Part shown: one piece after another, positions 21,020 through 22,565 of the stretch | Position numbering within the stretch: position 1 is the first letter of the stretch | How the letters are laid out: every line of letters starts with the position of its first letter | Source of the DNA: a virus | Strand: one strand, 5' to 3' | Virus genome (UHGV): UHGV-0107341 | Length of the DNA stretch: 54,395 nucleotides | Made by a program: the position numbers and the translations under genes | The notes under the pieces: generated by a model | What the model saw: the letters and a program-made list of their open reading frames with translations, nothing else | Database searches by the model: none | Told to the model about the DNA's origin: nothing

Positions 21020-21171
21020 CCTCTCACTCCATTATTTAACGAATAAAAAAGCTGCGGTGCCGGGTGCCTCCCGGTGTCCTTTGGCTGGTTATCCACCGTG
21101 GACGGGGAAACAAGGAGAAATGAATGGACTGATATAACCATTTCCCCGCGTGCGCTTAGCCGCATTCACCG

Positions 21172-21248
21172 CAACGGAAAGAGCATTCTTGGTGGACCTG
21201 TAGATTGGGATATGAACCCGTTACAGGAGAATGCTCTTACCTGTTACG
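21172..21248 (-). repeat. hairpin repeat unit 1 (about 17-bp imperfect stem, 38-nt loop)
   Basis: caacggaaagagcattct ... agaatgctcttacctgttacg; loop has a T-arm-like GGGTTCATATCCC (minus strand) and a 24-mer shared with unit 2. Confidence 0.5.
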
Positions 21249-21430
21249 TGCTCCGTTTCGTGGAGCTAACGGCGGGTGATCGGGCCGCACCAGGCTGGAC
21301 TTATTTCAGCGTTATGCTCATGCCAGAGAATCAAACTGTGATGGTCGGTGCTGAACTCCGACACAGGGTTGTAGCAAGCCCCGCAAAGCGCGCACTACTG
21401 TAGTTGCGGCACATCAGCCTGTGCATTCAC

Positions 21431-21525
21431 CACAATGTTGAGAACACTGGTTGTCACGCTGCAACGCAACATTTATTCGTAGATTGGGATATGACCCCGT
21501 TACGCCAGTGTTCTCAACGTTGTAG
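21431..21525 (-). repeat. hairpin repeat unit 2
   Basis: cacaatgttgagaacactgg ... ccagtgttctcaacgttgtag (17-bp stem); loop shares the 24-mer gtagattgggatatga(a/c)cccgttac with unit 1. Confidence 0.5.
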
Positions 21526-21660
21526 TGCCGGTTACGGTTCCGGCCAGGCCTCTTCCTCAACGGGGTGTTCTCCATACGGACTACCGTTTATTGGTCGTTC
21601 CTGCGGTTTATGTTGTGAAGCCAGATGCTTATCTTCTGGTTGCTTCAAAGAGCTGCACTT

Positions 21661-21739
21661 CATCACAACGGTAAGAGCACTCGATGCATTTAAGCCAAGC
21701 CCCATAAGGGAGAATGCCCTTACCTGTTGTGTTGTGATG
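21661..21739 (-). repeat. hairpin repeat unit 3
   Basis: catcacaacggtaagagcac ... gcccttacctgttgtgttgtgatg; same stem consensus. Confidence 0.45.
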
Positions 21740-21856
21740 ACCGGTGCTGATCTCCGGCTTGCGGTTATTTCAGACTCTCACGGGCGTTTAATTGCCCCGC
21801 CGAACAGCTCTTTTCCGCAATAGCTGCAATGTCTTTCGCGCATCAGCCTGCGCATT

Positions 21857-21946
21857 CATCACAACGGTAAGGGTACTTCGTAGGGATTCGAACCCTCTGC
21901 CAAGCTCGGCGATCTCCGACGTCGCAAAATACCCTTACCTGTTGTG
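21857..21946 (-). repeat. hairpin repeat unit 4 (tRNA-like minihelix next to the tRNA-Thr 3' end)
   Basis: catcacaacggtaagggta ... tacccttacctgttgtg (16-bp stem); loop contains GGGTTCGAATCCC (canonical T-arm sequence on minus strand). Confidence 0.5.
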
Positions 21947-21947
21947 C

Positions 21948-22023
21948 TGGTGCCGATTAACGGAATCGAACCGCTGACATCCTGCTTACAAGGCAGGCGC
22001 TCTACCAACTGAGCTAAACCGGC
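21948..22023 (-). tRNA. tRNA-Thr (anticodon UGU)
   Basis: Minus-strand cloverleaf GCCGGTTTAGCTCAGTTGGTAGAGCGCCTGCCTTGTAAGCAGG...GGTTCGATTCC...AATCGGCACCA; anticodon loop CTTGTAA. Confidence 0.8.
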
Positions 22024-22025
22024 AT

Positions 22026-22101
22026 TGGCGATGGTGGATGGATTTGAACCATCGACCCGTTGATTAACAGTCAACCGCTCTAACCGCTGAGCTACACCAT
22101 C
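22026..22101 (-). tRNA. tRNA-Asn (anticodon GUU)
   Basis: Minus-strand cloverleaf GATGGTGTAGCTCAGCGGTTAGAGCGGTTGACTGTTAATCAAC...GGTTCAAATCC...CACCATCGCCA; 2 nt from tRNA-Thr. Confidence 0.8.
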
Positions 22102-22305
22102 ACTTGCCGGGTACGTCTCCGGCGAGGGCTTCCACCTCCGTATGCTTTTCGGCGCACCGCGCCCTGGCTGCAATTCGGTAACAGGGGATGCATAACCCTG
22201 GCTTCCAGCGTGATTAGCGCTTTCAGCATGACGGGATATACCCGTAAATTCGTGGAACTGTACCCAAAGTGCTGTTAAGCACCGCTGTTACGCTGAAAAG
22301 AAGAC

Positions 22306-22385
22306 GCAACAGGAAAGGACGCTGACCAACAGATGGCCCCTTCTCGTTCATCTGGTTAATCACACCAGCGCCCTTACCTGTTGTG
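22306..22385 (-). repeat. hairpin repeat unit 5 (upstream of tRNA-Asn)
   Basis: gcaacaggaaaggacgctg ... cagcgcccttacctgttgtg; same right-arm consensus gcccttacctgttgtg. Confidence 0.45.
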
Positions 22386-22565
22386 CCTCCCCGTTCCCTA
22401 ATACACAGACGGGGACACTCTGCGGTCGATTTTTTGACGGGGGACGACTCATACCCCGTGGCGTCAGGCTTCTTAGGCCGCTACCATCATCAGATCATCG
22501 TTTGCATTTACTTTAATGGTCAGTTTCTAAACCGCCGCAAAGTCGCTAACCATGACGAAAACCCT

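Follow-up and report, generated by a model that had tools for sequence, protein, structure and literature searches.

The dicF locus of prophage Qin holds, in this order, a hairpin of the type that we call H, a module of the type that we call S, the small RNA (sRNA) DicF with its terminator, an STnc100-like module and then dicB. A literature search found no described role for this flanking hairpin; two papers on RNase III targets mention dicF by citation only. Here we analyze an array of five H hairpins, H1 to H5, in the virus genome UHGV-0107341 (54,395 nucleotides (nt), the whole of which is called the window below). The window comes from a P1-like phage or plasmid-prophage; over positions 20800-22800, its identity is 98.4% with Escherichia phage RCS47 and 97-98% with P1. 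Qin dicF is the closest known system: the leader that follows the promoter Pban in the window is homologous to the sequence upstream of dicF, and both loci lie in repressor-controlled early phage operons. They differ in that Qin has one H hairpin, whereas the P1-like array has five, interleaved with transfer RNA (tRNA) genes; Rfam gives no DicF match in the window. Across its relatives, H keeps a conserved RNA helix of about two turns, in which the paired bases covary, and a loop that varies; it stands at module boundaries in untranslated segments of phage operons.

Other known systems share parts of this design. The RNase III stalks of T7 early messenger RNA and of 16S and 23S ribosomal RNA are likewise duplication-related hairpins of about two turns that punctuate a polycistronic phage or stable-RNA transcript; H differs from them in its conserved bulged A, invariant base and large variable loop, and in its occurrence in many phage families. 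Bacterial Y RNA-like RNAs (YrlA, RF02553), and also tRNA-like elements that RNase P processes, join a tRNA-like portion containing a T-arm to a long stem made from their two ends, which resembles H4 and the 13% of H copies that have a T-arm. P1 itself offers a precedent for the action of RNase P on a non-tRNA, as the precursor of its C4 RNA is a substrate of this enzyme. The sole YrlA match, however, has 27 bits against a gathering score of 69 and lies over the real tRNAs (21964-22081), not over the hairpins, and most H loops are without any tRNA feature. STnc100 and PasD are prophage-borne, Hfq-associated sRNAs (bioRxiv 10.64898/2026.05.13.724894). The module S1, directly after H1, matches positions 31-147 of the STnc100 model (RF02076) at 21053-21173; the match (E 7e-6) has 37.8 bits, where the gathering score is 47. 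At its end, S1 has a stem and a U-run that resemble an intrinsic terminator. This likeness is confined to S1, and the H element lies outside the Rfam model.

The earlier note on this DNA had described five imperfect inverted repeats with a common stem. All five were confirmed: the inverted repeats I1, I2, I4 and I11 were recovered, and the arms form the direct-repeat families D1 (four copies) and D4 (four copies, two with the exact 16-mer GCCCTTACCTGTTGTG, one that differs from it at a single base and one at three). When folded, every unit is far more stable than its dinucleotide shuffles, and the minus strand is favored. Energies on this strand range from -37 to -49 kcal/mol (z -4.7 to -6.9), z-scores on the plus strand range from -3.2 to -4.0, and in all five hairpins the minus-strand fold is the more stable by 4-15 kcal/mol. 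The proposal that the repeats are structures at the RNA level on the tRNA strand is supported, and with Pban and its direction taken from the P1 annotation they lie in one operon with the tRNAs. The starts of H1 to H4 are 261, 233 and 196 nt apart, and H5 lies about 440 nt further on, past two tRNAs, where a spacing of roughly 220-260 base pairs (bp) had been given. The possibility that the hairpins are intrinsic terminators was rejected, as they have no U-tracts and a scan of the region on the minus strand gives only the terminator of the leader.

The individual hairpins differ in loop and stem. H1 carries a degenerate T-arm-like string, GGGUUCAUAUCCC, in its loop. The stem of H2 has 23 positions that are 91% complementary and shows compensatory changes relative to H3 and H4 (CAACGUUGAGAACAC / GUGUUCUCAACAUUG), while its loop holds a degenerate T-arm-like string and an inner hairpin. 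The loop of H3 is CAUUCUCCCUUAUGGGGCUUGGCUUAAAUGCAUCGAGUG, a type that recurs in Klebsiella phage MK54 and other phages. In H4, a small hairpin is followed by a canonical T-arm, AGGGTTCGAATCCCT (21882-21896), which abuts the 3' arm; the homolog in Enterobacter phage BUCT554 keeps this loop and has compensatory changes in the stem. The H5 stem (CACAACAGGUAAGGGCGCUG / CAGCGUCCUUUCCUGUUGCG) also has compensatory changes, in phage D6, and its loop contains the motif GGUGUGAUUAA, which in other phages is located in the hairpin that terminates a further element, X.

Relatives of these hairpins are widespread. A sensitive BLAST search with the array, its tRNAs removed, matched 114 phage records (Klebsiella, Escherichia, Salmonella, Cronobacter, Enterobacter and Shigella), nearly all in unannotated gaps, and a composite of H, S and sRNA from phage mEp460 has matches in 3085 of 5426 complete E. 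coli genomes (about 57%). Pattern scans of IMG/VR yielded at least 120 stretches for the H/S junction and at least 120 for the 5' arm of H, and the family extends over phages and prophages of Enterobacterales, Aeromonas and Marinobacterium. The elements are 68-134 nt long and consist of a near-invariant base, CACAAC...CGUUGUG, usually with one bulged A, a covarying upper stem that brings the helix to roughly 17-25 bp overall (median 19 predicted paired positions in the retained hairpins, range 15-30), and a loop.

Covariation was assessed on 69 distinct hairpins, taken from junction-anchored instances with at least 15 predicted stem pairs. At their 17 basal stem positions, Watson-Crick pairs number 996 and G·U pairs 100; the 77 mismatches include 14 A·C and a recurrent U·U, seen 38 times. 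Since A·C is what a G·U pair looks like on the other strand, the large excess of G·U over A·C fits selection on a transcript of the tRNA sense. In an alignment of the 35 distinct stems of the bulged class, 94.9% of the cells are paired and 10 of 19 pairs are changed on both sides; none of 500 shuffles reached the observed values, and sliding the partner by one to three columns leaves 33-63% paired. The stem base (AAC, bulged A, G ... CGUUG) does not vary in this alignment, and a second class, with a pair in place of the bulge, accounts for 18 of the 69 hairpins. Anchoring on the 5' arm only, which does not presuppose a hairpin, finds a complementary arm within 150 nt in 86 of 95 distinct instances. 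No Rfam 15 family matches H, the main S type or X at threshold; matches of the hairpins to the microRNA precursors mir-142 and mir-465 (26-28 bits) were dismissed as chance level. Literature searches with the exact sequences found no paper containing those of H, S or X, and none on the tRNAs of the P1 ban operon.

H forms a boundary: it is always found at the edge of some other RNA module, be it a tRNA, an S module, a DicF-like sRNA or X. Downstream of H stands an S-type module in 54 of 86 instances, and in the remainder tRNAs, STnc100-like variants or other sequences. Upstream, within a few bases, there is a terminator-like U-run (35 of 95), the terminal hairpin of X (15 of 95), a small hairpin of 5 bp, or the 3' end of a tRNA or S module. 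The tRNAs that H adjoins are tRNA-Thr in the window, tRNA-Ser in D6 and P7 and tRNA-Arg in an E. coli prophage; as called by ARAGORN, same-strand tRNAs near H lie either one base from it or after an S module. H4 was correctly seen to adjoin the 3' end of tRNA-Thr, as it begins 1 nt past the CCA. The order of modules varies with the phage: X-H-S in K751 (Klebsiella, Ackermannviridae); promoter-X-H-S-tRNA-tRNA in MK54 (Klebsiella siphovirus); an H4-type hairpin, S and a DicF-like sRNA in BUCT554 (Enterobacter, Uetakevirus); H, S and a DicF-like sRNA with terminator in the lambdoid phage mEp460, in the leftward early region beside the repressor gene; and H-tRNA-Arg-sRNA in the E. coli prophage (locus L012 of the related loci that we collected and numbered).

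The S module directly follows H on the strand of nearby tRNAs, starting with GUGGUGAAUGCGCAGGCUGAUGCGC and ending with GCCGGAGAUCAGCACCGGCCACCACA. In its frame, a closing stem of 7 bp is joined through 3 nt to a first hairpin of 5 bp; the core that comes next varies and measures about 30-140 nt, and a second 5-bp hairpin then abuts the closing stem. In the loci examined there are 89 distinct copies, 84-196 nt long (median 120), with 5' and 3' frames conserved nearly to the base, 96.5% of aligned cells paired and 8 of 22 pairs changed on both sides. A 23-nt motif at the 5' end is exact in many genera of Enterobacterales, in Aeromonas and in Marinobacterium, and also in a few metagenome bins of doubtful assignment. 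The loops of the two hairpins are complementary (GCUGA/UCAGC); the loop-loop helix that they could form is nearly invariant, and is consistent with the data, not proven by them. As predicted from the pairing, the topology of S is tRNA-like, and the S modules are more tRNA-shaped than the H units. The segment at the H/S junction, GUUGUGGUG, can pair either with the 5' arm of H (CACAAC) or with the 3' end of S (CACCACAAC), so that the H and S helices overlap by four bases. Within the window, S4 has the closing stem UGUGAUG/CAUCACA, the 5' hairpin GCGCA(GGCUGA)UGCGC, a variable core and the 3' hairpin GCCGG(AGAUCAGCA)CCGGU; its sequence matches, with 98% identity, a segment that lambdoid phages carry beside the repressor gene in their leftward early region. 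S3, which starts with UGUGAUGAAGUGCAG, has partial copies in Sashavirus, Nonanavirus and Klebsiella phages, S2 is of the main type (GUGGUGAAUGCACAGGCUGAUGUGC ... GUCGGAGUUCAGCACCGACCAUCACA), and the 88-nt stretch between S2 and H1 ends in a small hairpin.

Many S modules and tRNAs are followed by sRNAs with intrinsic terminators (L004, about 2440-2505, minus strand; L008; L012; L013; window 22567-22658). These resemble DicF (GCUUUGGCGGUACCAGUUU...), and the Rfam DicF model does not detect them. Another recurrent module begins AAUCACGCNUNAGGACCGUGAUA and may match described prophage sRNAs. In loci of lambdoid or Uetakevirus type (L004 2780-2880, minus strand; L008; L012; L013), the promoter and the first H are separated by a conserved leader, structured and about 100 nt long (ACGGCGUAUGGCACAUGCGUCGUUAGCGGUCUGG...), in a position where a put-type processive antiterminator RNA, as in HK022, would fit.

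The direction of the operon, its control by C1 and the transcription of the array are all taken from the annotation of P1. There, Pban, a promoter under C1 control, stands where dmt ends; it fires along what is the minus strand of the window and is followed by a "dicF-like region", trnA (Asn), trnT (Thr), upl/plp, tciABC, trnI and ban, with upl and plp occupying about 1 kb between trnT and tciABC and annotated opposite to the operon strand. The annotation and direction of Pban therefore make the array part of an early operon that is under repressor control and is read along the minus strand. In the window, the genes past the array are a small membrane open reading frame (ORF) and an SPFH-type protein, which replace the tciABC of P1. 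A simple scan of the region for internal sigma-70 promoters passed none, a weak negative because the same scan misses Pban. Where the earlier note had counted three tRNAs in the interval, we find only two, for Thr and Asn; the third, with a CAU anticodon, lies outside it (Table 1).

Table 1. Features of the array and its surroundings in the window (- denotes the minus strand)
Feature	Positions	Strand	Basis and remarks
S1, STnc100/PasD-like module	21045-21173	-	Rfam; -48.3 kcal/mol, z -3.0
H1 hairpin	21170-21248	-	I4; -37.1 kcal/mol, z -4.7
S2, main S type	21337-21434	-	Direct repeats D2 and D7
H2 hairpin	21428-21527	-	I1; -49.3 kcal/mol, z -6.2
S3, divergent spacer module between H3 and H2	21528-21667	-	
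H3 hairpin	21664-21731	-	-37.8 kcal/mol, z -6.9
S4, tRNA-shaped scaffold (predicted)	21733-21863	-	
H4 hairpin	21860-21946	-	-42.7 kcal/mol, z -5.2
tRNA-Thr(UGU)	21948-22023	-	ARAGORN; Rfam 73-75 bits
tRNA-Asn(GUU)	22026-22101	-	ARAGORN; Rfam 73-75 bits
H5 hairpin	22305-22385	-	I2; -48.8 kcal/mol, z -6.4
X element, between leader terminator and H5	22473-22563	-	Rfam tmRNA_permuted 24.1 bits
Intrinsic terminator of leader	22567-22592	-	Terminator scan places it at 22574-22596
Leader after Pban, homologous to region upstream of dicF in prophage Qin; "dicF-like region" of P1	within 22567-22786	-	
C1 operator and Pban promoter	22770-22786	-	P1 annotation
Third tRNA, CAU anticodon, outside the array interval	19872-19947		

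The tRNA content of the array differs among P1 relatives (L003 1661-1747; L005 1638-1724; L007 1138-1224). Ro157c2 has a tRNA-Tyr between the Thr and Asn tRNAs, and D6 and P7 have a tRNA-Ser(UGA) with an H hairpin directly after it. Between H5 and tRNA-Asn, the window has a stretch of 203 nt (22102-22304, minus strand) that matches no Rfam family and that RNAfold folds into a highly stable structure, at -70.5 kcal/mol, a value obtained without a shuffle control. Elsewhere on the minus strand, the Rfam matches above threshold (38773-38947, 42405-42490 and 42559-42611) are to sok antitoxin RNA, C4 antisense RNA and the a1/b1 target of the latter, as expected of a P1-like genome.

Our preferred reading, to which we give about an even chance, is that H is a conserved boundary and processing hairpin in the long untranslated leader of the ban operon and, in addition, a patch of homology for the exchange of modules. 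The anatomy described above is observed; the mechanism is what we propose on top of it. Derepression of Pban would yield one precursor of the order X-H5-(203-nt structured spacer)-tRNA-Asn-tRNA-Thr-H4-S4-H3-S3-H2-S2-H1-S1. In this precursor the H helices would serve as double-stranded stalks for processing and insulation, which would define and protect the ends of the modules, block exonucleases and keep the modules folding independently. RNase III accommodates double-stranded RNA of about 22 bp (PMC6212723), and from the similar size of the H helix we infer a role as an RNase III stalk. H has what a hairpin substrate of RNase III should have, namely an intramolecular helix of some 20-22 bp or longer, in a region that is transcribed according to the P1 operon map. 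RNase P and the enzymes that process tRNA 3' ends would release the tRNAs and perhaps the tRNA-shaped S modules, and, more speculatively, the dense helices may help the long untranslated leader to escape Rho. In the DNA itself, the frameworks of H and S, being near-identical, would act as homology patches for the gain, loss and exchange of modules between phages. In alignments with P1, D6, P7, SJ46, Ro157c2 and IMG/VR relatives, breakpoints of indels and deletions fall within the repeats, at 21681 (H3 arm), 21192 (H1 arm), 21409-21412 (S2 start) and 21224/21479 (a repeat common to the H1 and H2 loops); judged from these alignments, the repeated frameworks plainly mediate DNA rearrangement.

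Several points weigh against this reading. Both the cleaving enzyme and the fate of the H hairpin are what we infer, and searches of the literature on RNase III targets and P1 found no end-mapping data for P1-like phages. The near-invariant stem base and its bulged A are unexplained by RNase III alone. In 35 of 95 cases H lies within 14 nt downstream of a terminator-like U-run, so many copies would be transcribed only by read-through, and single copies can be dispensed with, since hairpin formation is lost in the recombinant H1/H2 hybrid of SJ46. The set of 69 hairpins was also filtered on folding energy, which inflates the percentage of paired positions but does not create the compensatory changes. 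We present the finding as one of structured boundary hairpins of phage polycistronic RNA, with a real chance that it is more than that.

The earlier note had taken the units, as a class, for tRNA-derived minihelices or degenerate tRNA duplicates, that is, for leftovers of duplication that fold as acceptor and T-arm and are handled by RNase P. We consider this very unlikely, although part of the evidence invites it. The T-arm-like strings reported for units 1, 2 and 4 are indeed all present on the minus strand, and the perfect T-arm of H4 (AGGGUUCGAAUCCCU) is stacked on the 3' arm; a canonical T-arm also occurs in 9 of the 69 family members, against 0.06 expected from shuffles, and in most of the nine it ends 21-24 nt from the 3' end of the hairpin, a placement from which it would stack on the 3' arm of H as on an acceptor stem. 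The arrays of relatives also hold extra real tRNAs (Ser in D6 and P7, Tyr in Ro157c2). However, only the string in unit 4 is canonical. Those of units 1 and 2 have 3-bp stems and the off-consensus loops UUCAUAU and GUCAUAU, and when scored against the canonical pattern (G-closed stem, UUCRANN loop) H4 fits, H1 fits only a relaxed form, H2 fits neither, and H3 and H5 have no such string. Neither ARAGORN nor the Rfam tRNA model RF00005, at E up to 10, calls a tRNA over any hairpin, the only calls being the Thr, Asn and CAU tRNAs. What defines the family is a covarying stem of about 20 bp that is found in no tRNA, and about 87% of its loops have no T-arm. These loops are hypervariable (about 25-90 nt, with many mutually unrelated types) and are exchanged freely while the stems stay constant, which argues against descent from acceptor stems; in Ro157c2 the T-arm-like 13-mer of unit 1 is deleted and the hairpin retained. 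The rarity of T-arms and this deletion indicate that tRNA-like pieces are a real but minority cargo, not the nature of H. The units may still be RNase P substrates or small regulatory RNAs, as had also been suggested. We hold it to be highly improbable that the plus strand of the region instead codes for two proteins, Upl and Plp, with the repeats as repeated peptide motifs. Two ORFs of 109 and 139 amino acids do overlie the array in one frame, a single stop codon apart, both are annotated in P1 and RCS47 under these names, and a PHROG family exists for the first. Yet neither reaches the threshold of a Pfam family (the sole match, at 13.8 bits against a cutoff of 27, is at chance level), and full-length tblastn matches to the 139 amino acids are confined to five near-identical records, all others being fragments that coincide with nucleotide modules (residues 105-139 correspond to S4 in lambdoid phages and residues 86-110 to H3). 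Among close relatives, the counts of variable sites at codon positions 1/2/3 are 2/7/4 for the first ORF and 3/6/10 for the second, with no convincing excess at the third position, and relatives have indels of 1, 2 and 13 nt and deletions of whole modules within the ORFs. The lengths and ends of the ORFs vary between relatives, Plp of P1 extends 30 nt into tRNA-Thr, and other annotators place ORFs on the opposite strand, or none. The suggestion that the ORFs here are artefacts is thus upheld, and we see no protein-coding gene conserved at the amino-acid level.

It is also conceivable, though quite unlikely in our estimate, that the hairpins act as DNA, either as recombination sites at cassette boundaries, similar to integron attC sites, or as mobile palindromes like miniature inverted-repeat transposable elements (MITEs) or repetitive extragenic palindromic (REP) elements, with the RNA modules as the shuffled cassettes. 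The form of H is suggestive, as attC sites and REP/MITE palindromes are also imperfect palindromes of variable length that lie at the boundaries of cassettes, with a variable center, an extrahelical base and ends that are conserved (H is 68-134 nt long, and its ends are CACAAC ... GTTGTG); the mosaic distribution of modules across unrelated phages and the indel breakpoints within the repeated arms point the same way. However, the attC core consensus is RYYYAAC ... GTTRRRY, and the ends of H, (G)CACAAC ... GTTGTGG, deviate from it at one and two positions, respectively. The favored folding strand is the sense strand of the RNA genes, on which all recorded nearby tRNAs lie, and the cassettes are RNA genes. 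The many types of host phage have no obvious recombinase in common, no link to an integrase is known (the window and the related loci were not scanned for integrases), and ordinary homologous recombination between repeats of 20-30 nt explains the breakpoints. The near-invariant base with its bulged A, and an S frame conserved to the base across genera, suggest that a simple RNase III stalk does not explain everything, and point to a specific partner. H, with S and X, might accordingly be no passive stalk but bind, or act as a decoy for, a specific and conserved factor of the host; candidates are ribonucleases, defense enzymes that modify or cleave tRNA, and the trans-translation machinery. The exactness of the 23-nt S motif from Escherichia to Aeromonas and Marinobacterium, the tRNA-like pieces among the cargo and the tmRNA-like tag frame adjacent to H5 (tmRNA, transfer-messenger RNA) would all suit such a role, but the loop cargo is too diverse for one decoy function and the partner is postulated; we regard this as unlikely.

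The tag frame belongs to X, the element between the leader terminator and H5. At 22473-22505 it reads GCA AAC GAU GAU CUG AUG AUG GUA GCG GCC UAA, or ANDDLMMVAA*, ten codons that offer what a tmRNA has, namely a resume codon and a tag ending in hydrophobic residues, two alanines and a stop; the SsrA tag of E. coli is ANDENYALAA. Related loci (L009, L010, L011, L017, L223 and others) contain frames of this type in 46 distinct contexts with 13 peptide variants (ANEEMYLAVA, ANDEQFLAVA, ANDDVVLMAA and others), all of ten codons, with synonymous differences among them and with TAA or TAG stops. The Rfam models tmRNA_permuted and beta_tmRNA match at 24-29 bits against a gathering score of 47, with alignment over the resume codon and tag only. 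The tmRNA mode of ARAGORN calls nothing in the window or in 135 sequences of related loci, and neither ARAGORN nor Rfam detects a tRNA-like domain upstream or downstream of X. X was not recovered as part of a complete permuted tmRNA, such a domain being found on neither side, and we rejected S as its alanine-accepting domain, as the closing stem has no G3·U70 pair and there is no encoded CCA. X may be a relic, a mimic or a part of a split tmRNA-like RNA.

One further loop deserves mention. In a hairpin from IMG/VR (L223 7921-7967, minus strand), the H loop, here about 175 nt, holds a hammerhead type I core (CUGACGAG ... GGAC GAAAC ... GUC) right after the 5' arm; it scores 24.7 bits against a gathering score of 34, and all core motifs are intact.

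A broader reading is possible, although we offer it tentatively and on balance doubt it. H, S and X may form a horizontally mobile kit of phage RNA modules, distributed from Escherichia to Aeromonas and Marinobacterium, in which invariant frameworks present interchangeable cargo (pieces of tRNA, the hammerhead-like core, seed regions of sRNAs). X would then be an orphan tmRNA-like coding element that taps or subverts trans-translation, and the leader of the P1 ban operon would be a five-fold array of such modules, and neither junk nor the genes upl/plp.

In P1, a textbook phage, the annotation gives two hypothetical proteins for about 1.4 kb of the early ban operon, where the evidence favors a train of structured RNAs instead. 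Modules of the H and S types lie without annotation in many therapeutic and temperate phages and in about 57% of the complete E. coli genomes covered by the search, where they flank known regulators, among them DicF and the STnc100/PasD sRNAs. A covarying boundary element of this kind is a handle for the discovery of sRNA and tRNA cassettes in phages, for the correction of spurious ORFs and for the study of how long untranslated leaders are processed. If functional, the tag frame of X would tie temperate phages to ribosome rescue in a new way.

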